64,000 nt of DNA. It comes from a virus. Of this stretch, positions 142-31,175 are shown piece after piece (within the stretch, counting starts at the first letter, position 1; each line of letters begins with the position of its first letter). The translations under genes were made by a program, and so were the position numbers. The notes below the pieces were generated by a model. That model was not told the DNA's origin, made no database searches, and worked only from the letters and a program-made list of their open reading frames with translations. Where the stretch lies: IMG/VR virus record IMGVR_UViG_3300028610_002494, positions 32,001 through 96,000 of that record; one strand, given 5' to 3'.

Positions 142-789
142 ATGGTAAAAATAATTAAACAGTCTTATGAAATACTTACTGATCTTGATGGATTAGTAAT
201 TCTCAAAAATATTGAGAAAGCTGCCAGAACTTGTTATAAATCTGAACATCTTATAATAGAAGATGGTGAATCTGCTAAGAAATTAGTTAAAAACTTAGTG
301 GAAAGAGGACATACTGCTATGTTAGAACATGGTGGAATGATTTCTGTTAAGATAATTTGTAATAGAGGACTAACCCATGAATTAGTAAGACATCGATTAT
401 GTAGTTATGCACAAGAAAGTACAAGATACTGTGATTATTCTAAAGATAAACATGGAAATGAAATAACAGTAATTAGACCATTAAATTTTCATAGTTATAG
501 TTCTATAGAAAAAGAAAATCAAATATATTGGGCTTGGTGTCAAGCAATGGATGCAGCTGAACAATCATATTTTAGATTAAGAAAACTTGGAGTATCACCA
601 CAAATAGCTCGTGGTGTACTTCCAATTGATATTAAAACTGAAATCATTATTTCTACTAATCCAACAGAATGGAGACACATACTAAAACTTAGAACTTCTC
701 CAGCTGCTCATCCACAAATAAGAGCTATTATGATTGGAATATTAAAAGATTTTAAAAATAAAATACCAATTATATTTGATGATTTATGA
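142..789 (+). CDS. thyX: Flavin-dependent thymidylate synthase ThyX
   Basis: ThyX signature ELVRHRLCSYAQESTRY; also GHTAMLEH, ARGVLP and AHPQIR. Confidence 0.95.
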   Translation: MVKIIKQSYEILTDLDGLVILKNIEKAARTCYKSEHLIIEDGESAKKLVKNLVERGHTAMLEHGGMISVKIICNRGLTHELVRHRLCSYAQESTRYCDYSKDKHGNEITVIRPLNFHSYSSIEKENQIYWAWCQAMDAAEQSYFRLRKLGVSPQIARGVLPIDIKTEIIISTNPTEWRHILKLRTSPAAHPQIRAIMIGILKDFKNKIPIIFDDL

Positions 790-3262: not shown

Positions 3263-4696
3263 ATGGAAACAAGATATCATTTTAAACATGATACAATTTA
3301 TTGTGGAGATAATTTAAGGGTTTTAAAATACTTTCCAGATGAGTGTGTAGATTTAATTTATATAGATCCACCATTCTTTAGTGGAAAGAATTATGATTTA
3401 GTATTTGGAGATAAATATGCAATTAGAGCATTTCAAGATACTTTTGAAGGAAAGAAAGAAACATATCTTTCGTTTATGGAAGACAGAATACGACATTTAC
3501 ATAGAATCTTAAAACCTACAGGAAGTTTTTATTTACATTGTGATCATCATGCATCTCATTATCTAAAGGTAATATGTGATGCAATATTTAATAAAGAAAA
3601 TTTTAAAGCTGATATAATATGGAAAAGAACGATTCAAGTGAAAAATGTAAAGAAAAATTATAGTAGGAATATAGATTATATATTATTTTATACTAAAAGT
3701 AATTCTTATACATTTAATACACAATATACACCACTAAGAAAAGAACAAATAAAAAAATATTATAATAATATAGAAAAAGAAACTGGTAGAAGATATAATC
3801 ATTCAGGATTAACAAGAAAAGGAAGTGGGATTAATAAATTAAAATTTCATGATAAAGGAACTATATCCACTCCTCTTGGTGTGTCTTTTGGTTGGTCTCA
3901 AGAAACATATGAAAAAGAATATAAAAAAAATCCACTCTGTATTCACTGGTCAAAAAATAATAAACCTCGAAAAAAGATATATTTAGATGAACATAAAGGT
4001 ATTCCTTTAACTATTTTATGGGATGATATACCAGAACTGCCAACAAATAGTAGTGAGAGACTTGGTTATCCAACACAAAAACCTGAAGCTTTATTAGAGA
4101 GAATCATTAAAGCAAGTTCAAATGAAAAAGATATAATTCTTGATTCTTTTTGTGGTTGTGGAACAAGTTTGGTTGTTGCAGAAAAACTAAATAGAAAATG
4201 GATTGGAATAGATGTTTCACCAATTGGTTGCACTGTTATGGCAAAAAGAATAGGATACCAACTAAAAAATATACAGGGAATGAAATATTCATTAAAACAA
4301 GCAAAAGAGTTAGATTGGATGGATTTCCAAAAATGGACAATTAAATCAATAGATGGAATTCCTCTAACAAAGAAAGGAGCAGATAAAGGAATAGATGGTT
4401 GGCAAAACAACAATAAATTCAATGAAAGTGTTCCAGTTGAAGTAAAACAACATAAAATAAACTATAATGATGTATTAAAGCTTAATTCTGTTATTGAAAG
4501 AGAAAAGAAGAAAGGTGGGTTTATGATTGCTTTTGAAATAACTAAACCTGCTTCAATAGAAATAAAAAGATTAAAAAGAACAACTAAAAGAGATATTGTA
4601 TTCATTAGTTTTGATGATTTATTTAATAGAGAAACCTTGTTAAAAAAAGGTGCTATTAAACCAACAATGTTAGAAAGACATTTTAAAGTAAAATAA
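3263..4696 (+). CDS. N6A/N4C DNA methyltransferase (beta class) with C-terminal Mrr/REase-like domain
   Basis: IYIDPPF motif IV, YPTQKP, DSFCGCG motif I; C-terminal GADKGIDG...VEVK PD-(D/E)xK-like segment. Confidence 0.9.
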   Translation: METRYHFKHDTIYCGDNLRVLKYFPDECVDLIYIDPPFFSGKNYDLVFGDKYAIRAFQDTFEGKKETYLSFMEDRIRHLHRILKPTGSFYLHCDHHASHYLKVICDAIFNKENFKADIIWKRTIQVKNVKKNYSRNIDYILFYTKSNSYTFNTQYTPLRKEQIKKYYNNIEKETGRRYNHSGLTRKGSGINKLKFHDKGTISTPLGVSFGWSQETYEKEYKKNPLCIHWSKNNKPRKKIYLDEHKGIPLTILWDDIPELPTNSSERLGYPTQKPEALLERIIKASSNEKDIILDSFCGCGTSLVVAEKLNRKWIGIDVSPIGCTVMAKRIGYQLKNIQGMKYSLKQAKELDWMDFQKWTIKSIDGIPLTKKGADKGIDGWQNNNKFNESVPVEVKQHKINYNDVLKLNSVIEREKKKGGFMIAFEITKPASIEIKRLKRTTKRDIVFISFDDLFNRETLLKKGAIKPTMLERHFKVK

Positions 4697-13020: not shown

Positions 13021-13542
13021 ATGGAAAAAATAAAAAAGATAAAATTTGAACTAATTCAAATGGAAAAGAATTATCAAACAAACAAGTCCATTTTCGTGAA
13101 AGACAGAACAATATTTATAGTTGGAAGATCAAATAAGTTAGGTAAAAAAATATTTTTCGTAAATGATTTTTATCCAAGGTTTTATGTAGAAAAAGGAGAA
13201 AATATAGATTTCATCATTGAAGAACATAAAGATAAAATAAAAGAAATTAAAACTAAAGAAGATGGTGAAGAATATAACTACAAAAATCTTGGAGGAAAAG
13301 AAGAACTTATTACAATTTACATTTATAAAACTTCAGATATTGAGATAAGAGATTTGTTTAGCAAAACATATCAAGCAAATATTAAATTTACTGAAGTTTT
13401 TAAAAGGGAAAAACTCATAAAAGATAATTTTTATGTTCCAGAATACGTTTTTGAAATGAAAACAAGAACTTTCAAAATATATGGAATAGAATACATAATG
13501 ATAAAAGAAAATGAGATTGATGGAGGAGAATTGATATTTTAA
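13021..13542 (+). CDS. Stand-alone family B DNA polymerase N-terminal domain
   Basis: IFIVGR...VNDFYPRFYV and IRDLFSKTYQANIKF match PolB NTD motifs (F.PYFY; T.EADI.F); the PolB at 28024 lacks this domain. Confidence 0.7.
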   Translation: MEKIKKIKFELIQMEKNYQTNKSIFVKDRTIFIVGRSNKLGKKIFFVNDFYPRFYVEKGENIDFIIEEHKDKIKEIKTKEDGEEYNYKNLGGKEELITIYIYKTSDIEIRDLFSKTYQANIKFTEVFKREKLIKDNFYVPEYVFEMKTRTFKIYGIEYIMIKENEIDGGELIF

Positions 13543-13907
13543 AAATATACATCTCAGGTGCTGTAGAAGACTCAGAAATAATAAATGAATTAGCAAGATA
13601 TTTTGAAAAATGTAAATGTAAAATAACTCGAAAATGGTGGCACTTTACTACTGAAGATATAATGAGATATCCATTATATATAGAAGAAGATATTAAAGCA
13701 ATCAGAAAATGTGACTTATTTATAATGTATAATACCAATAAAAAAACAAGTGGTAAATTTATAGAACTTGGCATGGCTATTATATTGAATAAACCTATTT
13801 TAATTTATGGAAAAGACATAACAAGTATGTTTAAATCAAGAACACAATATTGTGGAGAATTTAATATTCAAAAAGAGGAGAAAAGATGGAAACTAAAAAA
13901 GAATTAA
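13536..13907 (+). CDS. Nucleoside 2-deoxyribosyltransferase / N-glycosidase-like protein (extended upstream, non-canonical start)
   Basis: LKIYISGA...EDIKAIRKCD...SGKFIELGMAIILNKP; frame open back to TGA at 13518; GGAGG at 13522. Confidence 0.75.
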   Translation: MLKIYISGAVEDSEIINELARYFEKCKCKITRKWWHFTTEDIMRYPLYIEEDIKAIRKCDLFIMYNTNKKTSGKFIELGMAIILNKPILIYGKDITSMFKSRTQYCGEFNIQKEEKRWKLKKN

Positions 13908-14362
13908 GTGTTAAAGATATAGTTAAAAAATTCATAGATGATGAAAAAACTGCTTTCTTTCAACTCATTTATGATAGTATTACACGTGCATCTTCAACAA
14001 AAAGACCAGCAAGAGCAACTATAAGATTGCCAAAATATATTTGTGATACAGACACAAGGGATTTAAGAAAATGGGAAATTATTTGTGTTGCTATTCCAAA
14101 AGAGAAAGTAATGAAACTTTTAGAGGAATAAAATTATGAGATGGAAAATACAAATCATTAATTTAGGAAGTAAAAAGAAAAGAAAGATTAAAGACCTAAA
14201 AGACTATATATATGAAATCGCAGCAAAAATACAGATTTTTGTTGTTGAATTAGCAGAAGAAGATGAAACAATACCACTAACAAAACAAGAAAAATTAAAA
14301 AGAACTGGTGATTTCCTTTTAAAATTACAAAAAGAAATATTAGAATTTAGGAGAAATAAATA

Positions 14363-15022
14363 TTGTCGTTAATGGATTTTATTGGAAATAAAAAACCATT
14401 GGAAGAATTTATCAAATCTAATAAAGAAGATATTAAATTCAAGAAAATTAAATTTGAAGATATAATCTTTAGTGCTTTCGTTCATTTAAAATGTATGAAT
14501 TGTGGAATGTATAAAAGAAATTATCACTGTTTAGCAACTCCAAGATGGAAAAAATCTAAAGAAAACTTATCAAAATATAATAATTATTACTTAGTTTACA
14601 TACAATTTGATAATAAACCAAGAATAAAGGATTATTTCAAGAAAAGAGAAGTGTTTAGAGCACAAGGAAGTAAAGGAATGAATGATTGGTTAATTTATAG
14701 GAATGCTTGTGGTGCAAATCAAGCAATCATAGTTAGTAAATTAAGAAAATTCTTGATAAATGTTAAAACACACTATTCTAAAGAAAAATTAAAACTTTTT
14801 GGTGCAGGTGGTGGATGTCGTGGTTGTAGAGTTTGTGGGTTGGTTAAACCACAAATGATTAAAGAACCAAGAGAACCATGTAAAAAACCAAACAAGACTT
14901 TTGGAGCACCTGAAAGTATCGGAATAGACGTATATGCAACTTTAAAGAGAAATAAAATAGAATATGATGTCATACCAAAAAATAAATTAATAACAGTAGG
15001 GTTGATATGTCAAAAACAATAA
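14363..15022 (+). CDS. DUF2284-like Cys-rich metal-binding protein
   Basis: CMNCGMY...C, GGCRGCRVC...C...APESIGIDVY. Confidence 0.7.
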   Translation: MSLMDFIGNKKPLEEFIKSNKEDIKFKKIKFEDIIFSAFVHLKCMNCGMYKRNYHCLATPRWKKSKENLSKYNNYYLVYIQFDNKPRIKDYFKKREVFRAQGSKGMNDWLIYRNACGANQAIIVSKLRKFLINVKTHYSKEKLKLFGAGGGCRGCRVCGLVKPQMIKEPREPCKKPNKTFGAPESIGIDVYATLKRNKIEYDVIPKNKLITVGLICQKQ

Positions 15023-15451
15023 ATTGTAATCTAAATTGTCCAGCTTGTCATACAAACATAACTAAGATGAAAGAACATCATTTAAATGAAGATTTAGCTG
15101 TATTTAGATGTTTTTATTGTGGATATACTCAAACTATTTCAAATAATGGAGAATTTGAACCACAAGAAGAATTGAATATATATTATAATGAATATATAAA
15201 AAAAGAAATTATGAAGTGAAAAAAGAAAATGGCATGGAAATTAAGAACTTTTAAATGTAAAATTAAAAATAGAGACTATATCTCTGAGATGTTTAAGATA
15301 AATAAAAGAACTTATAATTACACAACAACCTTAGATGGTAAAGTTATTGCTCATGAAGAAAATCTCGAAATGGAGACAGCAGTTATACTTGAAGATCACA
15401 TTAAAGAAATAATTAAAAAAGAAAAAAGAATTTATCAAATGGAAAATTAAA

Positions 15452-16066
15452 ATGAGTCTTGAAAAATTTATAGGTATAAAAAGAGTAATAGATAACACAA
15501 TACCATCAGTTTTTATACATATTTTAGGTGGTCATAGTACTGGAAAGTCTGGAATAGTTGGAAGAATAAAACAAAAATATGGTGCTAAAATTATGGCACT
15601 TGGTAAGTATTCAAGAAGTAGAACAACAAAAGGACTGCTAACTGGTGGAATGGATGGAATACAGATGACCAACAAAGAACGATTTAAATACATTAAAAGA
15701 CATTTTCTTTCAAATAAACAAGTGTTATTGTGTGAAGGAATGATGGTTATTTATTATGATTCTTTTTTAAGCAAATACTATGAACTACAGAAAATAAAAC
15801 ACAGAACTGTTTATGTAATATTACTACAAACTGATATTGAAACAATGCGAAAAAGAATATCTAAAAGAAGTAAAGGAAAAGAACATAGTGAAAAAAGAGA
15901 AAGAAATTTAAGATCAAAAGCAAGTTGTTCTGAATCAACTTATAATAGACTTGAAGAAAATAGTACATTTATTAAAACTAAATTCGATACATCAGATTCT
16001 AAGATTTTTGATAATATAGTTATATATATATCTGAAATTATTGACAAAACACTAAAAAAGGAATAA
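15452..16066 (+). CDS. P-loop nucleotide/DNA-base kinase of the type associated with aGPT-PPlase systems
   Basis: GGHSTGKS, LGKY...GGMDGI, LLCEG, RISKRS lid; near the amino acid:DNA transferase gene. Confidence 0.75.
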   Translation: MSLEKFIGIKRVIDNTIPSVFIHILGGHSTGKSGIVGRIKQKYGAKIMALGKYSRSRTTKGLLTGGMDGIQMTNKERFKYIKRHFLSNKQVLLCEGMMVIYYDSFLSKYYELQKIKHRTVYVILLQTDIETMRKRISKRSKGKEHSEKRERNLRSKASCSESTYNRLEENSTFIKTKFDTSDSKIFDNIVIYISEIIDKTLKKE

Positions 16067-16068
16067 AT

Positions 16069-16641
16069 ATGGATTTTTTGATAAGAAAAATTAAAAATGA
16101 AAATGATAAAACACAAATTAAAATAATTTGTGAAAGTGTGGACAATAAAACAGTGAAATCTTTTCCTAATATTTGGGAAAGATTTAATAACTGGGAAAAG
16201 AATCCACCTTATGTTGTTGAAATAGATGGAAAGATAATTGCTTTTATGGGATTCACGATTAATAGAAATAATTATATTAATTTTTATGATTTTGCAGTTT
16301 TACCTGAATACCAAAGAAAAGGTATTGGTTCAGCTTTATGGGATAAGGTTATTAAAATTGCAACAGAAAATAGTAAAACAAGAATAAAATGTTCTGCTCA
16401 CATAGATTATGGTGGATATTTCTTTTACACTAAGAAAGTTAATTGGAAACCAATTGCAAGAAAAGGGAAAGAATATAAATTTGATGCTTTAATTGAAGGA
16501 ATTGATAATATTAATGATTTTACAAAAAGTATAAAGAAACAAACTCCACCAGATAAAAAAGAGATTGAAAGATATCAGAGATTAGATGAGTATTTTTATA
16601 ACTTAACTAAAAAAATATGGGAGTACTTTAAAAAATGTTAG
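16069..16641 (+). CDS. GNAT acetyltransferase
   Basis: FAVLPEYQRKGIGSAL acetyl-CoA motif; GYFFY. Confidence 0.85.
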   Translation: MDFLIRKIKNENDKTQIKIICESVDNKTVKSFPNIWERFNNWEKNPPYVVEIDGKIIAFMGFTINRNNYINFYDFAVLPEYQRKGIGSALWDKVIKIATENSKTRIKCSAHIDYGGYFFYTKKVNWKPIARKGKEYKFDALIEGIDNINDFTKSIKKQTPPDKKEIERYQRLDEYFYNLTKKIWEYFKKC

Positions 16642-17240
16642 AAACAATTGATGAAGAAGATAAAATAATTAGGAAATTAACTTTTAAAGAAAAATTAGAA
16701 ATTGGAAAATGTGGAGAAAAAATTACAGATGAGAGAATAGTAGATATAATCCATTTCTTTACAGCTTATAATTCACCAAGAAGATGGTATATAGAAAAAA
16801 GTGTATATCAAAAACTATCTCCATATGAAAGATATAAAAAATACCAAGGCAACGGAATTGATGGATTACTTCATTATGATAGCTTATTAGTTCAAGTAAA
16901 AACAAGACAACTTGCATATCTCTTAGAAGAAGACATATATTTTGAATTAGGAAGAAGTATAAAAGGAATAAATAAATATAGTGGATGGTATTGGAAAAAT
17001 ATTGATTTATTATTATATTATTTTTATAGCTTAACAAAAAAGAAGATAATGTGTGGATATGTTATACTTCTGGATGAATTTAAGAAAACATATAACACTC
17101 CTGTAAAAATTAATAAGAAGTTTGAAATAAAATGTGATTGGAACTTTAATCCAACAAAAATATATTTTTGTCCTAAATTTAAAGATTTTCCAAATAATTC
17201 ATTTTATGATATAACACCAATAGTAAAGGAGCTGGAATAA
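16635..17240 (+). CDS. PD-(D/E)xK nuclease-fold protein
   Basis: GE...GIDGL...VQVKTR...DIYFE. Confidence 0.65.
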   Translation: MLETIDEEDKIIRKLTFKEKLEIGKCGEKITDERIVDIIHFFTAYNSPRRWYIEKSVYQKLSPYERYKKYQGNGIDGLLHYDSLLVQVKTRQLAYLLEEDIYFELGRSIKGINKYSGWYWKNIDLLLYYFYSLTKKKIMCGYVILLDEFKKTYNTPVKINKKFEIKCDWNFNPTKIYFCPKFKDFPNNSFYDITPIVKELE

Positions 17241-17241
17241 A

Positions 17242-17658
17242 ATAAAACTAATTCCTGATGTAACAGATAAAACATTAGAAACAAAGAAATTTAATCCAAA
17301 ATTAATTTATGAATCTATATTAAGAGAAACTGATATTTCTGAAGAAGATGCTAAAAGAATTATGGAAGAAGTTGTAAGAAAATTAGTTTTTATGGGTAAA
17401 AAAATAAAGTTCCTATCTGCTCGAATGATAAGAGAAACGACAAATGCAACATTTCCAGAATATGGATTTGAAGAAGAAAGAAAAAAATATACAGTAATTG
17501 GAATTCCATTCTATGATTTAAAAAATTGGGTTGAAGATAAAACCTTAATTCAAACAGAAATTGATAAAAAAATAGTAGAACATATTAGAACTGAATATTT
17601 AAATGTAGAAAACCTAATAGAAACAATAAGAAATGGAGAAAATAATGAGAGATTATAA
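17242..17658 (+). CDS. Stand-alone ATP-cone protein (archaeal NrdD N-terminus-like), extended upstream from an ATA start
   Basis: FNPKLIYESILRETDISEEDAKRIMEEV...FLSARMIRE; frame open from 17227; AGGAG RBS. Confidence 0.7.
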   Translation: MKLIPDVTDKTLETKKFNPKLIYESILRETDISEEDAKRIMEEVVRKLVFMGKKIKFLSARMIRETTNATFPEYGFEEERKKYTVIGIPFYDLKNWVEDKTLIQTEIDKKIVEHIRTEYLNVENLIETIRNGENNERL

Positions 17659-18763
17659 TATAACAGACTACAGAACTGAAAGATGGAATGGTTTTAAGGA
17701 TTATTATATTAAAGAAATGTACTGTGGTGATGATCCAAATTATCCTGCTTTAAATTATATTTGTGATAAATTAAAACTAACTGAAGAACAGAGATATTGG
17801 ATTGCATTCTTATATGGAACTAATTATTGTGTTCCAACAACATATTACATTTTTAAGGAATTTCCTGATTATGAAAGAATAGATATTGACGAACTACAAC
17901 ATTGGTGGGATAAAAATAAAGAAAAAACACATTTCCAAACAGACAGAGCAAAAGTAAAGAACTTTAATTATTTTGTAAAATGTGTTGAAAGCTATCAAGA
18001 TTTAGTAGGAAAAAACCAAGTAGAAACTTTTGATATATTTACTGAAATAGATGATAATCAAGAAAAATATAAAATGGTTTATGATTTTACTAATGAAATA
18101 TTTTATTTTGGAAGATTTAGTTTATTTAATTATCTTGAAACAATTAATAAACTCACTAATTTAGAAATGGAACCAGATGGTTTAGATCTTAAATATGCAG
18201 AGAGTGCACGTAATGGACTATGTTATGCTTGTAATAAAGAAGAGTTTATCACATTACATCACAAAAAATCAAAAGAAAAGATAAATTATAGGTATTTACA
18301 AGAAAAACTCGAAACAATTGTATATGAATTAAAAGAAGAGAACCCTGAGATTGATGTAAACTACTGGAATGTTGAAACTGTTTTATGTGCATATAAAAAA
18401 CTATTCTGGAACACAAGATATCTTGGTTATTATATTGATAGACAAATGGAAGATATAATTAAATTGCAGAATAATGTAGATATAATAGATTGGAAAATTC
18501 TATGGGATTTTAGAGCTGAATTTCATCATCCACAATTTCTTGGTGAATTTAATGACTGGAATGGGATAAGAGAAGAGAACAAGTATTATGTAACAAAACA
18601 TGGAATACTTGATATTAAAGAATTTCCTAAATATAAAACCTGTTTAAGAAAAGTTGATTTACAATCTACTAAAAAACCAAAATTAATAAACAACTTAGAA
18701 CATTATAAAAGAAGAATAATAAGCAAAAAACCTAAACCAAAAAAAATATGGGAATATTTTTAA
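17633..18763 (+). CDS. Amino acid:DNA transferase (alpha-glutamyl/putrescinyl-thymine pyrophosphorylase clade 2-like)
   Basis: QRYWIAFLYG, F.TDR, FGRFSLFNYLE (HhH-like), ETVLCAYKK and YLGYYIDRQ motifs; start may be 17645. Confidence 0.8.
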   Translation: MEKIMRDYNITDYRTERWNGFKDYYIKEMYCGDDPNYPALNYICDKLKLTEEQRYWIAFLYGTNYCVPTTYYIFKEFPDYERIDIDELQHWWDKNKEKTHFQTDRAKVKNFNYFVKCVESYQDLVGKNQVETFDIFTEIDDNQEKYKMVYDFTNEIFYFGRFSLFNYLETINKLTNLEMEPDGLDLKYAESARNGLCYACNKEEFITLHHKKSKEKINYRYLQEKLETIVYELKEENPEIDVNYWNVETVLCAYKKLFWNTRYLGYYIDRQMEDIIKLQNNVDIIDWKILWDFRAEFHHPQFLGEFNDWNGIREENKYYVTKHGILDIKEFPKYKTCLRKVDLQSTKKPKLINNLEHYKRRIISKKPKPKKIWEYF

Positions 18764-18776
18764 AAAGAGGTGAAAT

Positions 18777-19016
18777 ATTATAACAAATCATAAAGAAATA
18801 AGATACAAAATCTGTTTTAATTGTAAGGTGTTTATGCCAATTTTCACTTGTGATGCCATTAATCTACAAGAACTAACAAATTTCGAAAGAATACATAATG
18901 AACATATGGTTCAAACTATAAACTACAACGAAATACCTACAAATTATATATTTATTAAAGGCAAAAATGCAAGAGAAAGAACTTTAACACAAATTCAAAA
19001 AATGTTAGAAGTATGA
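18777..19016 (+). CDS. Small Cys/His Zn-binding protein (ATT/ATA start)
   Basis: YKICFNCKVFMPI...HNEH; GAGGTGA RBS at 18767. Confidence 0.6.
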   Translation: MITNHKEIRYKICFNCKVFMPIFTCDAINLQELTNFERIHNEHMVQTINYNEIPTNYIFIKGKNARERTLTQIQKMLEV

Positions 19017-19174
19017 AAAAATGTAAGGGATGTGGATATCCTCAAAATCCACCAAATAGCAATAAAATTTGGTTATCTGAGGATGGTCTATGTTCAATAT
19101 GTTATTCAAAACAAATAAAACTTAAAAAAAATAATAAAAAACCTAAAAAAATATGGGAATATTATGATAATTAA
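19013..19174 (+). CDS. 53-aa Zn-finger protein ending in KKIWEYY, absent from the ORF track
   Basis: MKKCKGCG...CSIC...KKPKKIWEYYDN*. Confidence 0.7.
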   Translation: MKKCKGCGYPQNPPNSNKIWLSEDGLCSICYSKQIKLKKNNKKPKKIWEYYDN

Positions 19175-19655
19175 AATAAAGAAAATGGGAAGAAATGTAA
19201 AATTACCAACAAAACAAAGAGAAGGAGATGCTGGATATGATGCTTATATTTATGGTTTCCAGAAATATACTCAAAATAAAATTAATAAAAATAAAAATCC
19301 AGTTAATTTGAATAGATCAGAATATATTTTAGAACCATTAGAAAGGGTTGATTGTAGATTAGGATTTGCCACAGAAATTCCTGAAGGATATTATGCTCAA
19401 ATTGTACCAAGAAGTGGTTTAGCAATTTGGAATGGTTTAACTGTATTAAATACACCTGCTACAATTGATTCTGGTTTCAGAAATGAATGGATGGTGATAA
19501 TTGTTAATATTTCTGATAAAAAAGTGAAGTTAATAGTTGGAGACAGAATTTGTCAAATAATCATAAGAAAATTGGTGGAATTTGAATTTAAAGAAGTTAA
19601 AAAATTAAATAAATCTGAAAGAAATTTAAATGGATTAGGGAGCACAGGAAAATGA
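19164..19655 (+). CDS. dut: Trimeric dUTPase
   Basis: AGYD, PRSGLA, TIDSGFR, GDRICQ, GLGSTG. Confidence 0.95.
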   Translation: MIIKIKKMGRNVKLPTKQREGDAGYDAYIYGFQKYTQNKINKNKNPVNLNRSEYILEPLERVDCRLGFATEIPEGYYAQIVPRSGLAIWNGLTVLNTPATIDSGFRNEWMVIIVNISDKKVKLIVGDRICQIIIRKLVEFEFKEVKKLNKSERNLNGLGSTGK

Positions 19656-20854
19656 AAATATTAGTAATAGCAGGATATCTTGAAGCAAATATCAAGAATG
19701 AAACACACAAAACTCAAAGTATTAAAGGTGGAGCATCTAAAAGTATTACAAACATAGTTAATAGCTTAAGAGATATAAAAGGTATCCAAATAAAAGTTTT
19801 AACACAAAAATTTAGAAACAAACTCTTAAAATCACTTGATCTTGATGCTTATATATTAATTCCAAGAATAATAAAAAATATTTCGAAATTTAAACCTAAC
19901 ATTATTATAACACAAGACAGAATTGCTTTTCCAACAATTCTCATTTCCAAAATAATGAAAATTCCTGTTATTTATATAATCAGATCTCCCACAGAGTTTT
20001 GTCCAAAATATGTAGATGTTGTTAACTATGGAAAAGCATGTTCAGGAATAAATAACAGGAGACAATGTTTTAAATGTATTAATAAATGGAAAACCTTGCG
20101 GATTTTAATTGATAATAGACCAAAAGGTTCAGAATATTCCATTAAAGCTTCTTTATTAAATGTTTTTTTTAAAATACGATATTTTATATGTTTATTCAAT
20201 TTGTATTTAACTAAAAAAGCTAATATGATTCTGGTTGCTTCTACATTAATGAAAGAATTTTTTTCCAATAAGATAAACCAAGATAAAATTAAAATAATTA
20301 ATATAACTCCAATCCACAAATATATAAATAATGTAAATAGAAAAAAGAAACAATTGATATTTATCAGAACCCATTATAATGCTGCACATAAAGGTTTAAA
20401 TTTCATTTTAAAATTATCAAAAATTATACCTGAAAAATATCGTATTTTAATAGTTGGCAGTTCTGAGGACAAACAACAAGAAAATAATCCAAAAATATTA
20501 AATGTTGGATATATTTCTTCTAAAATATTACTTAACAAAATGTTTGCAGAATCCAAGATCACTTTAGTTCCATCTTTCTTTACTGAAGCTTTTGGAAGGA
20601 TTATTCCTGAAAGTTTGTCAAATAAAACTCCAGTTATCTCTTCTCCACAATGTGGTGCAAACCAATTTTTTAAGGAAAAAGATTTTTTAAGGGTTGTTCC
20701 TTTAAAATTAAACTTATGGATAAAAACAATTGAAGATATTATCCAAAATCCTCCAATTATTACTGATAATGATATTTCTCAAATTTATGAGCAATTCTCA
20801 TTAGAAAAGAGTAAAAAAGATTTAATGAATATAATAAAAAATATTAAAAGGTGA
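19652..20854 (+). CDS. GT4-family glycosyltransferase
   Basis: GGA, HKGL, VPSFFTEAFGRIIPESL...PVI. Confidence 0.9.
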   Translation: MKILVIAGYLEANIKNETHKTQSIKGGASKSITNIVNSLRDIKGIQIKVLTQKFRNKLLKSLDLDAYILIPRIIKNISKFKPNIIITQDRIAFPTILISKIMKIPVIYIIRSPTEFCPKYVDVVNYGKACSGINNRRQCFKCINKWKTLRILIDNRPKGSEYSIKASLLNVFFKIRYFICLFNLYLTKKANMILVASTLMKEFFSNKINQDKIKIINITPIHKYINNVNRKKKQLIFIRTHYNAAHKGLNFILKLSKIIPEKYRILIVGSSEDKQQENNPKILNVGYISSKILLNKMFAESKITLVPSFFTEAFGRIIPESLSNKTPVISSPQCGANQFFKEKDFLRVVPLKLNLWIKTIEDIIQNPPIITDNDISQIYEQFSLEKSKKDLMNIIKNIKR

Positions 20855-21437
20855 TTAAAATAAAAGAATGGAAAGAATGGAATTCATTTATACAATGGAT
20901 ATGTATTATTGGTTTTTTTTTAATAATTATAATGGTATTTATTGAAGTTTTTTATTTTATTATAAATATTCCAGATGAACTTATTCTTGGGATTCGTGAA
21001 AATAGTATAGGGAAACATTATCTCAATAATCCAGAATTAGTAGCTGAGATGGAAGCTTTAGCATCATCATCTGAGTTTTTACATTATACAATAGTATTTT
21101 TATTATATACATTGATATGTATAGTATTATTTTTTTCATATAATGAGGTTAGAGAAAATGAAAAAATATTTAAAAAAAGGAAAAAACATAGAAAAAAATA
21201 AATTGAAACACATTTTTAAATCTATTTTATTCTATACTAAACTTGTGTTTTATGTTTCAATAGGAATTTTAAGTTTAGGAATGATATTTGTATTGTTTAT
21301 GGGTTCGGATTTAGAAGAAGAAATATTTGAAGATGAATATGAATTAATGAGGAGAAGAGAACAATTAGAAGATGATTTAATATCAGAAAAGACAAAAAAA
21401 TACAATAAATTAACTTTAATAAAAAAAGAGGAAAATA

Positions 21438-22181
21438 ATGAAAGAGAAATATAAAGATTGGAAAGAAGCATTTCAAATGAAAAAAAAGTATTCAAAAAAC
21501 TTTCCATTTTGTTTCTATGATTTAGCTGCAAAATATTTACCTGAAGATGAGAAAGCTATAGTTATTGATGTTGGTTGTGGAGAATGTAGATTTGAGGATT
21601 ATCTTGATCTATGGAACAAATATAAAAATTTATTTGTTTTAGATGGAAATCTTGAAACTGTTGATAAAATAAAAGAAAAAACAAGATTGATACATGAATT
21701 TGATTATACAATTGAATATATAGCACCAAATAGAATGTTATTTGAAAATGAATCAGTGGATTATATATTTTGTGGACACTTAATAGAACATCTTGATTTC
21801 AAGGAATTATATAAATTATTTAAAGAATTTGATCGAGTTTTAAAAAATGATGGAATTCTTGTTGTAAGCACTCCTATGTTATGGAATGGTTTTTATGGGA
21901 CACTTAGTCATGTAAAACCTTATCATCCAGCACTTTTCAAGGATTATTTTTATACTGATGATGAAAATATAAACCCATCATATAAACCTATTTCCAGAAA
22001 ATATAAACTTGAGGAACTTGTTTATAGATACCATACATTTGTAGATATACATAATACAATGGGATCATCTATAAAAGCATTTGATTTTCTAATTCAATTC
22101 TCGAAGTATGTTTTGAGAGCTTTAGGAATAAAAAAATATACTCAAACTGGATATACAATAATTTTAAGGAAACAAAAATGA
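21438..22181 (+). CDS. Class I SAM-dependent methyltransferase
   Basis: IDVGCGE, HLIEHL, RVLKNDG...STP. Confidence 0.9.
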   Translation: MKEKYKDWKEAFQMKKKYSKNFPFCFYDLAAKYLPEDEKAIVIDVGCGECRFEDYLDLWNKYKNLFVLDGNLETVDKIKEKTRLIHEFDYTIEYIAPNRMLFENESVDYIFCGHLIEHLDFKELYKLFKEFDRVLKNDGILVVSTPMLWNGFYGTLSHVKPYHPALFKDYFYTDDENINPSYKPISRKYKLEELVYRYHTFVDIHNTMGSSIKAFDFLIQFSKYVLRALGIKKYTQTGYTIILRKQK

Positions 22182-22858
22182 ATAACATTAAAGATACAAG
22201 CTGGATTTCATATAAAACACTTCAATCACATTTTATGCAAATTTATTTAACAATAAAACTAAAAGCTAAAGATGTTCTTGAGATTGGAGTATTAAGGAAA
22301 ATTGTCACTTCTATTTTAAATCAATATTGTAATTTAACCACTCTTGATTTTAAAGAAGAGTTTAATCCAGACTTGATTATTGATATTACTGATTCTAAAC
22401 AGCTTGATACCATTAAAAATAATGCTTATGATTTAATATTACTCTGTGAAGTGTTAGAACATATTTCTTATGAAAAAATAGATAAAATACTCAAAATATT
22501 AAAAAAGAAAACAAGAAAATACCTAATAATTTCAGTTCCAAATCAAACTACATATATAAATCTAACTTTCTTTAATCACAGTAATAATAGAATACTTAAA
22601 AAAATAAAAGATTATTTTAATTTATTTTTTATTAAAATAGGAAACTTAATTTCAAAATTAGACTATAATATAAGGAAAAAACATAGAAAATATAAATCCG
22701 AAGGGACTTTCTTTCCTCATTGTTGGGAATTAGGAGTAGATAAATATAGTATAAACACATTTAAAAAACTATTAGAAAAGTATTTTACAATTATAAAAGA
22801 AGAAAGACTTAGAGATCATCCTTTTCACCATTTTTTTATATTAAAAAAGAGGTTATAA
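22178..22858 (+). CDS. Class I SAM-dependent methyltransferase
   Basis: VLEIG, CEVLEHI, IISVP, HCWELG. Confidence 0.85.
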   Translation: MNNIKDTSWISYKTLQSHFMQIYLTIKLKAKDVLEIGVLRKIVTSILNQYCNLTTLDFKEEFNPDLIIDITDSKQLDTIKNNAYDLILLCEVLEHISYEKIDKILKILKKKTRKYLIISVPNQTTYINLTFFNHSNNRILKKIKDYFNLFFIKIGNLISKLDYNIRKKHRKYKSEGTFFPHCWELGVDKYSINTFKKLLEKYFTIIKEERLRDHPFHHFFILKKRL

Positions 22859-22859
22859 A

Positions 22860-23594
22860 ATGGGATTAACAAATGTTATCATTGATTTTCAAGAAGAAAT
22901 CATTCAAAAAATAGGTTTTCAATGGCAAAACATAAGAATATGTGAACTTGGTGCTATGTATATGAGAACAGTTGATATTCCTGCAAAAGAATATTATATT
23001 AAAGAAAAAAAAGTATTAGAACATATATCTATTGATTGGAATGGTATGTATGATTCACTTCCAATTGATTTATGTTTTCCTGTTCCTGAAGAATTATTAA
23101 ATAGATTTCATTTAATAACTGATTTTGGAACAATAGAACATGTAGATAATCAATATCAAGTTTTTAAAAATACACATGATATATGTACTAAAAATGGAAT
23201 TATGATCCACATCTTACCAACCTTAAATTATTGGAAATTTCATTGTCGTTATTTTTATACAAAAGAATTCTTTTTAAAATTAGCAGAATTATGTAAATAT
23301 AAAACTCTTGATTTAAAAGAAGGAAATTGTTGTGATCCACCAATATTTAAGAGAGATTTGATTTATGTAGCATTTTTAAAACTAAATAATAATAAATTTA
23401 CTTCAGAAAAAGAATTTAATAAGCTTAATATATTTGATATAAAAGAACCAGATAATACTAACAAACTTAGAACAGAAAATATTGTTTACATTTTATGGAA
23501 ATTAACAGAACACCAATTTTTTTTGAAGGGTTTTCGTAAAATACTTAAAAATATCTATAAGATATATATAAATGTTAAAAAAGGTATAAAATGA
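22860..23594 (+). CDS. Class I SAM-dependent methyltransferase-like protein
   Basis: ICELG, SIDWNG, DFGTIEHV, GIMIHILP. Confidence 0.8.
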   Translation: MGLTNVIIDFQEEIIQKIGFQWQNIRICELGAMYMRTVDIPAKEYYIKEKKVLEHISIDWNGMYDSLPIDLCFPVPEELLNRFHLITDFGTIEHVDNQYQVFKNTHDICTKNGIMIHILPTLNYWKFHCRYFYTKEFFLKLAELCKYKTLDLKEGNCCDPPIFKRDLIYVAFLKLNNNKFTSEKEFNKLNIFDIKEPDNTNKLRTENIVYILWKLTEHQFFLKGFRKILKNIYKIYINVKKGIK

Positions 23595-24466
23595 AAACAA
23601 GAATATTCATACTCTGTGCAGGGAAAAATGTAAAATATTATGGAATTACAAGACAATTATTAAAGATAAATGGAGAAGAAATATTAGGAAGAATGATTAG
23701 ATTAATAAAAGAAGAATGTAATTATGAGATTTTTATAATCACCAATAATGATATTATAGAGAATTATATTAAAAGTATTAGAAATAATAAAATTATACTT
23801 TTTCATCCTGCTGCTGAACGATATCATATGGAAAGCTTATATTCAACTAAAGAAGAATGGGTTGAAAGAAATATATTCTTATTTGGTGATGTAGTGTTCT
23901 CTAAACATGCTATAAAAAAAATATTAAATTCTGATAATAAATTAAGTTTCTTCTTTAGAATAAAACCACATTTATATTTAAACAAACGTTATCCTGAAGG
24001 TTTTGGTATGTTAATTCCATTGAATGAAACTAATAGGATGTCAGATATCATTTTAAGATCCTATAAAAGAGCATCTATACATGGTGGAGTATTTATATTT
24101 AATAGTATTTGGAAAGAACTTAATTTAAGATTAGGAGAAGAACATTTAGAATTTGAATCTTATAAAACACGTGATTTAATCAGTAAACTATGCTTAAATG
24201 AATTTATAAGAGGTATTTTTTATGGAATAATACGATCCATTGAAGGAAAAATAATACGATTTATTTTTTATAAAGCTAAAATATCTGATAAATGGAAAAA
24301 TAAACTTGTTAAATTATTTTTAGGGAAAAAAATTCCAGATTATAATAAAAACTTATTATCATCTAAATACATTGTAGAAATACATGATATAACTGATGAT
24401 ATAGATCATCCAAGAGAGTATAAAGATTATATTAAACTAATAGTGAAAAAAGGTTTATTACAATGA
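23591..24466 (+). CDS. Nucleotidyltransferase (sugar/choline-phosphate NTP-transferase fold)
   Basis: ILCAG...RQLLKINGE, FGDV, DDID..EY. Confidence 0.75.
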   Translation: MKTRIFILCAGKNVKYYGITRQLLKINGEEILGRMIRLIKEECNYEIFIITNNDIIENYIKSIRNNKIILFHPAAERYHMESLYSTKEEWVERNIFLFGDVVFSKHAIKKILNSDNKLSFFFRIKPHLYLNKRYPEGFGMLIPLNETNRMSDIILRSYKRASIHGGVFIFNSIWKELNLRLGEEHLEFESYKTRDLISKLCLNEFIRGIFYGIIRSIEGKIIRFIFYKAKISDKWKNKLVKLFLGKKIPDYNKNLLSSKYIVEIHDITDDIDHPREYKDYIKLIVKKGLLQ

Positions 24467-25377
24467 TGGATGCTACTGATAAATTTACTACAATTGGTTT
24501 TGAAATAACGAACCACTGTAATAAAAACTGTAAATTTTGCACTAAGATGACAGGATATAAATATAAAATCAGATATACAAAATTAGATGATTATGAATAT
24601 GTTGTGTCTTGTATAAACAAGAAAGACAGAGAAAAATTTAGAAAAGTAGTGATCACTGGTGGAGAACCACTTTTACATCCACATTTTATAGAATTAATGA
24701 ATTTAGTAAGAAAAGATTTTCCGAAAGCTGAGATTAAAGTACAATCAAATGGAAGATTAATTAAAAGATTGCCACAAAAGAAATTAAGAATTTTACCTAA
24801 TATAAAAAAAGTAATATTTTCAGTATCCCATTATCCAAGCTGGAACGATGAAATAAAGAAAATATATGACGGAAATATTAAAACACCGTTAATTTATAGA
24901 AGAGTAATCAGAAAACTAACCAAAAATAACAAATTTATAAAATTACTCAATTTAGATTATAGAATTCCATTTATAAAAAAAGTAAGACGATTTATTAGCA
25001 ATCCTTTTAAAAGAGGAAATGTTTACTTTAAGAATTTCACAGGATTTCGTGATCCTTATGTAGATCCAAATCTAACGAAAGAAAATGCAAAAATAGTTAG
25101 AAAAACATGTCATTATTTTATTTGGATAATAGACAGAAAGCTTTATAGCTGTTGTGTAGATTCTGTTTATGAAAGATATTATAACACCAAATCTGTTGGT
25201 ATTAAATTTGATAAAAACTGGAAAAAAAATTATTTCAAATTACCAACATGGAGAGCTTGTGCTCATTGTCCACAAGGATATAATAGGTACATAGTAATTA
25301 GTTCAGGATTTGAAAAATATAAATTAATTAGTTTAAGAAAAAGATTAGAATTTGTGAGGATTAAAACCCATGTTTAA
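24463..25377 (+). CDS. Radical SAM protein
   Basis: CNKNCKFC, TGGEPLLHP, SNG; C-terminal Cys cluster. Confidence 0.9.
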   Translation: MMDATDKFTTIGFEITNHCNKNCKFCTKMTGYKYKIRYTKLDDYEYVVSCINKKDREKFRKVVITGGEPLLHPHFIELMNLVRKDFPKAEIKVQSNGRLIKRLPQKKLRILPNIKKVIFSVSHYPSWNDEIKKIYDGNIKTPLIYRRVIRKLTKNNKFIKLLNLDYRIPFIKKVRRFISNPFKRGNVYFKNFTGFRDPYVDPNLTKENAKIVRKTCHYFIWIIDRKLYSCCVDSVYERYYNTKSVGIKFDKNWKKNYFKLPTWRACAHCPQGYNRYIVISSGFEKYKLISLRKRLEFVRIKTHV

Positions 25378-25968: not shown

Positions 25969-26424
25969 ATGGAAAAAAATAAAGATTTAATTGATACTTT
26001 AGATCCACTACATTATTACACTAAAAAGGATTTATGTGGAAATTGTAAATATATAAAATCATTTTTATGTGATAAGAGATATGCTGAAGGAATTAACATA
26101 ACCTATTTAGAACAATATCAAATTAAAATATATATATATAAATTTATATCAAATAATTTAAGAAAGATAATTGATTCATTACACGACAAAGAACTATATC
26201 ATCATAGACAAGGTGGATATTTTGCTTTAAAATCAACCAATTTCCATTGTGGTGAATCTTGTGATTGTGATTGTTCTACAGAAAGATGCTGGGAATTTGA
26301 AAGAGTACCAAGTAGAAGACAGCCACATTGCATCAAGTTTTTTGGTTTGGATTTACCTGAAAAATATAAAGAGAACAATATTACATTTATTTTAGGCAAT
26401 TTAGAGTTTGAGAAAATAATATAA
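25969..26424 (+). CDS. Cys-rich protein, possibly a degenerate DUF2284-like paralogue
   Basis: CGNC...C, CGESCDCDC...C...R..CIKFFGLD. Confidence 0.45.
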   Translation: MEKNKDLIDTLDPLHYYTKKDLCGNCKYIKSFLCDKRYAEGINITYLEQYQIKIYIYKFISNNLRKIIDSLHDKELYHHRQGGYFALKSTNFHCGESCDCDCSTERCWEFERVPSRRQPHCIKFFGLDLPEKYKENNITFILGNLEFEKII

Positions 26425-26515: not shown

Positions 26516-27805
26516 ATGAAATATAAAATGAAAGAATTAAGTATTGAAATAACATATAAATGTCCAATGAATTGTATTCATTGTAGCAGTAGAGCAGAAC
26601 TTGAAAATGAGACAATGATACCAACAGAAAAGATTTTAGAAATGATTGGAAGATGTAAAATATACTGTGGAACTGAATGTGTTTCTCTTTCAGGTGGAGA
26701 ACCATTTGAACATCCTGATTTCTGGAAAATATTAAAACACATTAAAGCTCAAGGTTTAAAAAGTATAGTTTATTCTTGTGGAATTGAGATGTCACCTGAT
26801 GGATATTATTGGTGTTTTAGTGATGAAAGAATAAAAAAACTAAAAACCTTATGTGATGTGTTAATAATAAGTTTACATGGAACTGGTGATAAACATAATA
26901 AAATATTAAATATTGGAGATACTGCTTTTTGGAATGTATTATATACAATAATGAAAGCAGTGCGTGAAAGTATTAAAGTTGAAATTCACTTTGTTCCTAT
27001 GTCTTTTAACTATAAAGACATTAAAATTATATATGGAGTCTGTATGGCACTTGGTGTTTCTAAAATGTCAATATTACGATATGTACCACAAGGAAGAGGA
27101 TTAGAAACAAGTAAAACTGAAGGAGAAATAAACCTAAATAAACCACAATTTATCGAACTACAATATGATATGAGATATATAAGAGATTTATCTAAAATCA
27201 CTGGTATGACTGAATTTAGAATTGGTATTCCAGCAGACTTTACATTTTTACTTGATTATCTTGAAGGGAATAATGATGCCAAAAAAACTAAAGCTTGTAC
27301 AGGTGGAAAAACTAAAATACTTGTAAAAGCTGATGGGTTTGTTCAAGTATGTCCTGCTTGGAAAGAACTTGATCACCTTTCAGCAGGAAATATTTATAAA
27401 GAAGATATTGTAGATATATGGAAAAAAGGAAATACTTATTGTAAATTTAGAGAATTTACCTATAAAGATTTAGGAGAACCATGTAAAAATTGTAAACTTG
27501 TTGAAAGTTGTTTAGGTGGTTGTGGAGCTCAAAGAATTTTGAATTCAACCTTTAAAGAAATAAATGGACTAAAAATTGCTCCTGATCCATTATGTTTTTA
27601 TGATGAAATAGAACTTACTAAAAAAGGGTTGATTGAATTAATAGATATATTAGAACTAAAGAAATGGTTAATCAATAAAAAAGAAGAATATGAAGAAATT
27701 GCTGTTAATTCAATGTCAGATTCACGAGCAGTTAATTATATGGCAAGAACAACTACTATTAAAGAAATCCTTAAATATATTGAAGAAATAAAAGAGATTA
27801 ATTAA
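26516..27805 (+). CDS. Radical SAM/SPASM protein
   Basis: CPMNCIHC, SGGEP; SPASM-like CTGG...CP...CKNC...CLGGC. Confidence 0.9.
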   Translation: MKYKMKELSIEITYKCPMNCIHCSSRAELENETMIPTEKILEMIGRCKIYCGTECVSLSGGEPFEHPDFWKILKHIKAQGLKSIVYSCGIEMSPDGYYWCFSDERIKKLKTLCDVLIISLHGTGDKHNKILNIGDTAFWNVLYTIMKAVRESIKVEIHFVPMSFNYKDIKIIYGVCMALGVSKMSILRYVPQGRGLETSKTEGEINLNKPQFIELQYDMRYIRDLSKITGMTEFRIGIPADFTFLLDYLEGNNDAKKTKACTGGKTKILVKADGFVQVCPAWKELDHLSAGNIYKEDIVDIWKKGNTYCKFREFTYKDLGEPCKNCKLVESCLGGCGAQRILNSTFKEINGLKIAPDPLCFYDEIELTKKGLIELIDILELKKWLINKKEEYEEIAVNSMSDSRAVNYMARTTTIKEILKYIEEIKEIN

Positions 27806-30381: not shown

Positions 30382-30383
30382 AT

Positions 30384-31175
30384 ATGAAAAAAACAAAAAT
30401 TAGCAGTAGTAAAATTGATGGATATGATTGGTGTAATAGAAAATATAGAATTAGAGAAATAGAAAAAATTCCATCTGGAGTTCCACCACATCCTTCATTA
30501 ATACTTGGAAAAGTAAGTCATAAAGAAATACATAATTTTTGGGAAAGATATAACCTTGATCTGGATAATTATGTTTTTCATATACAAAATTACTATACTA
30601 AAACCATTAAAAGAATTAGAGGATTAAGTGAAGAAAATTATATAAAATTCCAGTTGTATTTCTCAAATTTTATTAGTTTCCAGAAAAGAAGAATTGATAC
30701 TTACATAAAAAAATATGATGATGAATATTATATTATTGATAAGCTGTTTTTTCCCATAATCTCCGAAAAATATGGAAAAGTAAATATAACAAGTGATATT
30801 ACTTTTGGATTCATTATAGATTCTTTATTTTGGAATCCTACTGGCAATATCCTAATAGACTGGAAAACAGATAAGGATTGTACTGAGGAAAAATTCAAGA
30901 GTCATATACCTCAACTTAATAGATATTCAGAATGTTTACCACATATTAACCATAGTTGTAAAAAAATAGGGATATACTTCCTAAAAGACTCATTATTTTT
31001 TAACAGGTTAAACACAATAGGATATTCACTTGAAAAAGAAGTATTGACTTTTATAAGAAAAATACAGATCTCTAAATTTCCAAAGGTGTCAAAAAGAGAT
31101 AAATGGAAATGTCATAATGCAGATCTCAGTTATACTTGTGAATATTATCCAGAAATATGTACAGGAGTTGAATAA
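30384..31175 (+). CDS. Cas4/RecB-like PD-(D/E)xK exonuclease
   Basis: N-terminal C, G...H, IIDS...IDWKT, QLNRY, C-terminal C..C..C. Confidence 0.8.
   Translation: MKKTKISSSKIDGYDWCNRKYRIREIEKIPSGVPPHPSLILGKVSHKEIHNFWERYNLDLDNYVFHIQNYYTKTIKRIRGLSEENYIKFQLYFSNFISFQKRRIDTYIKKYDDEYYIIDKLFFPIISEKYGKVNITSDITFGFIIDSLFWNPTGNILIDWKTDKDCTEEKFKSHIPQLNRYSECLPHINHSCKKIGIYFLKDSLFFNRLNTIGYSLEKEVLTFIRKIQISKFPKVSKRDKWKCHNADLSYTCEYYPEICTGVE

Follow-up and report, generated by a model that had tools for sequence, protein, structure and literature searches.

A putative thymidine-hypermodification cassette in a probable Asgard archaeal virus, and a candidate oxygen-free source of its substrate

Introduction

Where does a virus obtain 5-hydroxymethyluracil (5hmU) if it carries enzymes that would consume this base and none of those known to make it? 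The question is raised by a 64,000-nucleotide stretch of DNA (the window), which covers bases 32001-96000 of a single virus record of 111,837 bp (IMG/VR record IMGVR_UViG_3300028610_002494). Window positions 15452-18763 hold genes for a P-loop kinase, a GNAT acetyltransferase and an amino acid:DNA transferase (ADDT). The best explanation of the locus as a whole, to which we give a probability of about 70%, is that these positions form a portable thymidine-hypermodification cassette of the kind found in phages M6, ViI and PaMx11, carried by an Asgard-type virus, with the surrounding DUF2284 and radical SAM genes as a candidate source of 5hmU.

To our knowledge, bacteriophages are so far the only source of worked-out pathways of thymidine hypermodification, and in every one of these the origin of 5hmU is a ThyA-type hydroxymethylase or, presumably, an O2-dependent TET/JBP enzyme. 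What is new here is the host domain, the combination of enzymes and the lack of a known 5hmU source. The genome would put the kinase and transferase logic in an Asgard-tied virus, and it predicts a new N-acetylated amino-acid-thymine. It also presents a clean gap, a cassette that consumes a substrate without a known maker, inside an uncharacterised Fe-S and radical SAM module that travels with DNA-base and nucleotide genes and is also present in Thorarchaeota genomes. The question of how strict anaerobes might hydroxylate 5-methylpyrimidines in DNA is thereby reduced to a small, assayable set of genes. If the reading is true, it would offer oxygen-free enzymatic tools for DNA labelling and a function for DUF2284.

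The kinase and the transferase

The genes of the cassette are as follows (window positions).

15452..16066, + strand: P-loop kinase resembling 5-hmdU DNA kinases, divergent HMUD1/gp54 type, with an N-terminal MSLxxFI tag (hhalign to M6 gp54)
16069..16641, + strand: GNAT acetyltransferase with a C-terminal KKIWEYF tag (Pfam, 56 bits)
16635..17240, + strand: 201-aa protein, possibly PD-(D/E)xK-like (Atlas leads)
17362..17658, + strand: 98-aa open reading frame (ORF)
17633..18763, + strand: ADDT (aGPT-Pplase2) with a disordered linker and a C-terminal KKIWEYF tag (PF18724, 72 bits, cut-off 26)

The first-pass annotation, made from the sequence alone, had proposed thymidine hypermodification by kinase, ADDT and GNAT with an unexplained substrate source, and this core is supported by the homology of the kinase to M6 gp54. 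Relatives of the kinase were found as 23 cluster representatives among 1.84 billion proteins, and their alignment shows Walker A, LGKY and TGG.D motifs and an R..RS.GK lid. When a profile of 19 such sequences was compared with M6 gp54, a verified 5-hmdU DNA kinase that itself matches Pfam HMUDK_HMUD1, hhalign returned a probability of 98.2% (E 2.7e-14) over 138 columns, with Walker A, LG.Y, TGG.D and R..RS.GK common to both. The same profile is matched (97.9%) by a kinase family of about 175 aa that adjoins ADDT in 49 of 80 viral loci. A ViI gp67-type identity was rejected, as HMUDK_hel gave no match, and tblastn of the kinase against phages gave none either.

Pfam reports only weak AAA_17/18 matches for this protein. 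Some weaker matches would favour another assignment. The PHROG matches include "thymidylate kinase," and the profile weakly matches deoxynucleoside kinase (dNK), UMP-CMP kinase and thymidylate kinase in the PDB (E 1e-5 to 1e-2), a point against our reading of the locus. The P-loop protein could then be a dNMP kinase and the ADDT homologue, whose fold is common to helix-hairpin-helix (HhH) glycosylases, a DNA-glycosylase-like repair or anti-restriction protein, with no post-replicative hypermodification. This is very improbable. The M6 gp54 match is much stronger than the dNMP-kinase matches and spans family-specific motifs, the kinase family keeps company with ADDT in those 49 loci, and kinase, GNAT and ADDT are gained or lost jointly. 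On the sequence evidence, the weak dNK and NMP kinase matches reflect a common fold.

The ADDT assignment holds by its Pfam score and by structure. Searched with tblastn, the protein matches 382 phage records, mostly ViI-like Ackermannviridae, and it is 31% identical (E 3e-26) to the SFP10 homologue of ViI gp247, a serine:DNA transferase. By sequence it is closest to the ViI serine-transferase branch. An AlphaFold model made with 29 homologues in the alignment reached a pLDDT of 90.3, and its three best PDB matches in a fold search are the PaMx11 gp46/PUGT entries, in keeping with the ADDT/HhH fold on which the earlier interpretation depended. The sequence profile missed PUGT among PDB sequences where the fold search found it. 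Residues 346-367 are disordered in the model and are followed by a short terminal helix. PUGT binds DNA and works through D24, R94, H95, F173, D175, E243 and C247. The window family has invariant E248 and C252, in an E-x3-C spacing that resembles that of PUGT.

Relatives of this ADDT in viral contigs were collected by an alignment scan (a single-protein scan gave none), which yielded the subfamily set used throughout: IMG/VR loci L002-L081 and L114 (80 loci), and virus records G001-G045 (45). No report of ADDT/aGPT-Pplase in archaeal viruses was found in the literature.

An inserted cassette in a conserved module

The annotation had placed all of these genes in one co-oriented run ending at 19655. 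The co-orientation is confirmed, since every gene of the cluster is on the + strand, with neighbours that overlap or leave little space between them. The unit continues, however, to 27805, and takes in a glycosyltransferase, two methyltransferases, a nucleotidyltransferase, two radical SAM enzymes (5-8 kb downstream of the earlier-noted cluster) and a second DUF2284-like gene. Around the cassette, these features are found.

13536..13907, + strand: NDT-like gene (nucleoside 2-deoxyribosyltransferase/Rcl-like; Pfam Nuc_deoxyrib_tr 30-31 bits, just over cut-off; probable ATT start)
14363..15022, + strand: DUF2284 protein, Cys-rich and metal-binding, with a nitroreductase/CblC-like core and an N-terminal MSLxxFI tag (Pfam, 66 bits)
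15007..15450, + strand: two small ORFs, one of 70 aa with two CxxC pairs, one of 73 aa
18828..19174, + strand: 62-aa ORF and 53-aa zinc-ribbon ORF, the latter (19013-19174) ending KKIWEYY
19164..19655, + strand: trimeric-type dUTPase (Pfam, 77 bits)
19652..24466, + strand: sugar block with a GT1/GT4 glycosyltransferase, two SAM methyltransferases, a sugar-1-phosphate nucleotidyltransferase-like gene and small ORFs
24463..25377, + strand: radical SAM enzyme, 304 aa (Pfam, 50 bits; NCBIfam matches all far below cut-off)
25969..26424, + strand: 151-aa Cys-rich DUF2284 paralogue, fused to DUF2284 in distant loci
26516..27805, + strand: radical SAM/SPASM enzyme (Pfam Radical_SAM 62 bits, SPASM 37 bits)

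Which of these genes belong together can be told from relatives. A metagenome scan with a DUF2284 alignment gave 19 loci for comparison, four of which (L092-L095) are syntenic relatives of the window virus, while a DUF2284 scan of viral contigs gave no match. In L092 and L095, the kinase and the 201-aa gene directly follow DUF2284, and L092 additionally has a GNAT, a HAD-like gene and an ADDT. L093 and L094, though syntenic, are without kinase, 201-aa gene, GNAT and ADDT. In L093, DUF2284 is followed by a zinc-ribbon ORF, a homologue of 25969-26424, a radical SAM enzyme, a radical SAM/SPASM enzyme and the family-B DNA polymerase (PolB). Homologues of the 201-aa gene occur only in the contigs that also carry the kinase (L092, L095), and homologues of the 98-aa ORF are placed elsewhere in L093 and L094.

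The presence of these genes in L092 and L095 and their absence from L093 and L094 indicate that 15452-18763 is an inserted cassette. The insertion would have taken place in a module that is conserved in the lineage, lies immediately upstream of PolB and holds the NDT-like gene, DUF2284 and its paralogue, the two radical SAM enzymes, the sugar enzymes and the dUTPase. By synteny, the NDT-like gene (with homologues in L093, L094, L095 and L098), DUF2284, the 151-aa gene and the radical SAM/SPASM gene are backbone. DUF2284 and the NDT-like gene can no longer be counted as accessories of the cassette, as they had been at first, since both are also present in sister viruses that lack kinase and ADDT.

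Possible docking peptides at the termini

Two short terminal peptides link cassette and module. Across the genome, an MSL..FIG N-terminus is found only on DUF2284 and the kinase, and a KKIWEY(F/Y) C-terminus only on GNAT, ADDT and the 53-aa zinc ribbon. The patterns, MSLxx[FY][IL] at the N-terminus and K-I/V-W-D/E-Y(F) at the C-terminus, are kept in homologues. In L093, a TET-associated glycosyltransferase (TAGT; L093:12458-13288) ends RKVWDY and the zinc ribbon ends KRIWDYGE. On the ADDT, the tag follows the disordered linker of the model.

The tagged enzymes likely dock on a common partner, judging from the peptides themselves. This partner is possibly a sliding clamp, for example that of the host, as the tags are compatible with a PIP box in its hydrophobic core, albeit without the glutamine. 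No PCNA gene was found in the genome, though an RFC-like gene is present, so the virus presumably uses the host clamp. The missing PCNA gene, and the dissimilarity of the tags to the canonical PIP box QINLAKFL of the viral FEN1, count against this part of the picture.

Tailoring and the predicted product

By homology, the gp54-type kinase would phosphorylate 5hmU already present in double-stranded viral DNA. The ADDT would then flip the base out and let a free amino acid or amine take the place of the phosphate through its amino or hydroxyl group, and the GNAT would acetylate the free amine that remains. The GNAT call stands, and its gene, placed between kinase and ADDT, supplies a clustered tailoring enzyme. 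GNAT adjoins ADDT in 38 of the 80 loci, and natural fusions of 540-550 aa (P0003, P0005) join an N-terminal ADDT, 64% identical to the window's, to a GNAT. Adjacency and fusion argue for consecutive action on one substrate.

Other tailoring enzymes were sought in the genome. The FAD-dependent glycinylthymine lyase (gp47) has no counterpart by PF01266 (DAO). For a pyridoxal phosphate (PLP) decarboxylase, PF00291 (PALP) gave no match and phmmer with M6 gp52 was negative, with other PLP fold types not searched, so that the earlier remark that no PLP enzyme was seen is borne out for the PALP type. The two window radical SAM enzymes do not match the c10 family profile of gp53-like radical SAM isomerases (0.8% and 2.5%), and their identity as the M6 gp53 isomerase was rejected.

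With no decarboxylase, FAD lyase or gp53-like isomerase, the predicted end product is N-acetylated and still carboxylated. It is probably a uracil with an N-acetylated amino acid (or amine) attached at the C5-methylene, previously undescribed, and as predicted it is unlike 5-NeOmdU, 5-NedU and 5-AcNmdU. For the sugar block (19652-24466), DNA and virion proteins are possible targets. In place of the single GNAT, the closest relative of the window virus (L092:2333-3953) encodes a 328-aa protein with a HAD-type DxDxT start and a divergent GNAT of 214 aa. Tailoring would accordingly seem to differ even among near relatives.

The missing source of 5hmU

The annotation had seen no recognisable dUMP hydroxymethylase in the window, and the search can now be extended to the whole 111,837-bp genome with the same outcome. 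Neither a ThyA-like hydroxymethylase (PF00303) nor TET/JBP (PF12851, and a TET profile from 56 related loci) was matched, nor was a C5-cytosine methyltransferase or TAGT (PF20691). In the sister contigs, no TET or ThyA was found within +/-10 kb of the loci. The ThyX gene noted earlier is real.

142..789, + strand: ThyX, flavin-dependent thymidylate synthase (Pfam Thy1 143 bits; canonical RHR...S motif)

Aligned to solved ThyX structures, it presents RHRLCSYAQESTRY and the downstream Arg residues, with the canonical RHR...S...R motifs intact, and a visibly neofunctionalised ThyX was rejected on these grounds. A canonical ThyX together with the dUTPase predicts an ordinary dTTP supply. As the genome makes dTMP and has neither a ThyA-type hydroxymethylase nor TET/JBP, 5hmU would most likely arise after replication, from thymine.

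The ADDT subfamily points in the same direction. Its virus records carry TET/JBP in 31 of 45 cases, ThyA in 1 and ThyX in 2, which implies that thymine in DNA is normally the origin of the 5hmU on which the subfamily acts. The TET-associated ADDT group was noted by Lee et al. 2021 (PMC8989533). An O2-dependent dioxygenase would be useless, however, in the virus of an anaerobe.

Of the 80 ADDT loci, 56 have TET/JBP and 14 have a gp53-like radical SAM, and no locus has both (hypergeometric 1.3e-9, relatedness ignored). Each of the 16 records with a completeness of 90% or more has exactly one of TET/JBP (11), ThyA (1) or gp53-like radical SAM (4), that of G008 being found across the terminal repeat. 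In the four gp53-like radical SAM genomes, the 5hmU source is likewise unexplained.

The viral ThyX itself could be the supplier. 5hmdUMP is a known quench product of the ThyX intermediate, and capture of the exocyclic-methylene intermediate by water would give 5hmdUMP for incorporation at replication, as in SPO1 or M6. ThyX is the sole enzyme in the genome for C1 transfer to dUMP, it adjoins the DUF2284 module in L098, and among ADDT viruses at least 90% complete it is present in 2 of the 5 without TET (G003, G007) and in no TET-bearing one. We nevertheless consider this route unlikely. The motifs of the window ThyX, as described above, are all canonical, its counterparts in ADDT viruses share only about 28% identity with it and form no dedicated clade, ThyX is missing at the syntenic position from L095, which does carry the kinase cassette, and no dTTPase or dNMP kinase was found for remodelling of the nucleotide pool.

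The DUF2284 and radical SAM module

This directs attention to the genes around the cassette. The 151-aa protein (25969-26424) is a degenerate DUF2284, and in distant loci it is fused to DUF2284 (in the L104 fusion, Pfam sees two DUF2284 stretches). In L093, L098, L100-L102, L104-L107, L111 and L112, a homologue of the radical SAM/SPASM enzyme is encoded no more than a few kb from DUF2284. Where DUF2284 is fused, the radical SAM/SPASM gene is 1-2 kb off, and dCTP-deaminase/dUTPase-like neighbours are seen in L104-L108 and Nmad3 ("nucleotide modification associated domain 3") in L101, L102 and L112. The DUF2284 fusion with radical SAM/SPASM is also present in two Thorarchaeota metagenome-assembled genomes (MAGs; L111, L112). 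In L098, the module has an HD hydrolase, a GT1 glycosyltransferase, an FkbM methyltransferase, an NDT-like gene, ThyX and dUTPase. In L093, the TAGT (Pfam, 55 bits) sits inside the DUF2284 and radical SAM module, with no TET in the locus.

A recurrent trio was seen in the Asgard MAG contigs L111, L112 and L100, namely a DUF2284-DUF2284 fusion, a 516-aa protein without a Pfam family and a radical SAM/SPASM enzyme. In L112, a homologue of Nmad3 is near the trio.

By association, this module is the best candidate for an oxygen-independent 5hmU step, and we put it forward tentatively. The radical SAM/SPASM enzyme would abstract a hydrogen from the methyl group of thymine and pass an electron to its auxiliary clusters, which is the logic of anSME and BtrN. 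Water would add to the intermediate, with DUF2284 as redox partner or matured catalyst. It is possible, if still doubtful, that the module (DUF2284 with its Fe-S-type cysteine motifs, the small paralogue and radical SAM/SPASM) replaces TET/JBP altogether in anaerobic Asgard hosts, oxidising the C5-methyl of thymine in DNA or nucleotide to 5hmU, and that interchangeable tailoring enzymes (kinase, ADDT and GNAT here, TAGT in a sister virus) are recruited by the terminal docking peptides. No report of an anaerobic radical SAM route to 5hmU was found in the literature, nor anything functional on DUF2284.

The cassette could also be real and its flanking module unrelated to it, serving peptide or metallocofactor maturation, glycans or a separate modification, while 5hmU comes from an unrecognised gene or from the host. 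Two findings speak for this and thus against the wider reading. The module occurs without kinase or ADDT both in viruses (L093, L094, L098) and in the Thorarchaeota MAGs, and the radical SAM/SPASM enzyme resembles peptide and cofactor maturases only generically (it matches models of peptide, heme and PQQ maturases, with scores well short of every cut-off), so it may serve an unrelated role. In addition, small ORFs flank the radical SAM/SPASM module, and the stretch preceding PolB may be no more than a hot spot for insertions. The neighbours of the module elsewhere, on the other hand, are nucleotide and DNA-base genes (TAGT, Nmad3, DCD-like, HD, NDT, ThyX, dUTPase), one N-terminal tag is common to DUF2284 and the kinase and one C-terminal tag to the L093 TAGT, ADDT and GNAT, and no other candidate 5hmU source was found in 111.8 kb. 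We regard such a separation of cassette and module as possible, though less likely than not.

For the cassette with the module as its candidate 5hmU source, further points have to be set on the other side of the balance. No known 5hmU-making enzyme is present, and the cassette hence has no demonstrated substrate. All steps, and the chemistry that they would carry out, are predicted from homology. The kinase scores 12.6 bits against PF18748 (HMUDK_HMUD1), for which the cut-off is 27, although it is still the sole PF18748 match in the genome. The ADDT is about 14% identical to PUGT, and conservation of catalytic residues is established only for its GD.DP.Y.AL motif, which aligns with M6 gp51. 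Lastly, the host is assigned from gene similarity and not from spacers or co-culture.

Comparison with known systems

In the ViI pathway to 5-NeOmdU, the kinases gp67 and gp243 are followed by the serine:DNA transferase gp247 and the PLP decarboxylase gp226. The window virus shares with ViI the branch of its transferase, as described above, and differs from it in having no HMUDK_hel-type kinase, PLP decarboxylase (PALP) or ThyA.

Base J and the TET-TAGT systems offer a different likeness. The window module has glycosyltransferases, and its sister L093 has a bona fide TAGT in the same position. The window virus, though, is without a 2-oxoglutarate/Fe(II) dioxygenase, and its own glycosyltransferase is of the GT1/GT4 type and not a TAGT, with DNA as a putative substrate.

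Further close counterparts of the cassette are the TET/JBP-associated ADDT and 5-HMUDK metavirome clusters (Lee et al. 2021, Fig. 2). They have an ADDT of the same subfamily (40-54% identity) with kinase and GNAT neighbours, and 5hmU is presumed there to be made post-replication from T in DNA. Unlike them, the window locus lacks TET/JBP, GATase, ParB_N and amidoligase, and it lies inside a DUF2284/radical SAM module in a virus of very low GC (24%) with Asgard-type replication genes.

In the PaMx11 pathway to 5-AcNmdU, a kinase (gp49), PUGT (gp46), an FAD lyase (gp47) and an acetyltransferase (gp48) act (PMC8989533, PMC11472151). As the window virus has no FAD lyase, its GNAT cannot act on 5-aminomethyl-dU made in that way. 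It also differs from PaMx11 in its lack of a ThyA-type dUMP hydroxymethylase, in its distant ADDT (the 14% given above) and in host domain.

The virus and its host

The 111,837-bp record has 144-bp direct terminal repeats and looks like a complete genome. Its GC content is 22-28%, almost all genes are on the + strand and no tRNA genes were found. Its replication proteins are of the archaeo-eukaryotic type and comprise a family-B polymerase, an RFC-like clamp loader, a primase large-subunit-like protein, topoisomerase IA, a Ski2/Hel308-like helicase and FEN1/XPG.

Genome 30188-31174 (L090:10188-11174): FEN1 with a C-terminal canonical PIP box, QINLAKFL

In a search of 5.8 billion proteins, all named relatives of this FEN1 were Asgard (45-49% identity), from the Promethearchaeota, Lokiarchaeota, Thorarchaeota, Hermodarchaeota and Hodarchaeota, and closer matches (50-87% identity) bear no taxon name. 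Gene similarity thus agrees, if indirectly, with the first impression that this is a probable Asgard archaeal virus.

Other genes of the region

Most of the remaining gene calls could be kept. The DUF2284 and dUTPase genes were identified correctly, and the deoxyribosyltransferase-like gene has the right start at 13536. No ATG, GTG or TTG start is available to it before 13662. Four homologues begin MKIYISG, which aligns with ILKIYISG in the window, and GGAGG lies 8 nt upstream of the ATT at 13536, so that coordinate is right. The ATP-cone identity proposed for the 98-aa ORF (17362-17658) was rejected, with Pfam, PHROGs and ESM Atlas all giving no support. The PD-(D/E)xK assignment of 16635-17240 stays a lead, as Atlas neighbours carry PDDEXK_14/16 and NOV_C (scores 0.90-0.93) and Pfam has no match. 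Directly upstream of the NDT-like gene, a 173-aa ORF (13021-13542) without a Pfam or PHROG match is kept in seven related loci.

Elsewhere in the window, a protein at 3263-4696 joins an N6/N4 DNA methylase (156 bits) to an Mrr-type restriction endonuclease domain, and a second N6/N4 methylase lies at 31571-32329. At 53475-55031, a 518-aa protein has an N-terminal GHKL/HATPase_c_3 domain and a weak C-terminal match to SprT-like metalloproteases. A tyrosine recombinase (Phage_integrase, 63 bits) adjoins a winged-helix protein (35417-36070 and 34223-35413), and with such a recombinase the virus may be able to integrate.

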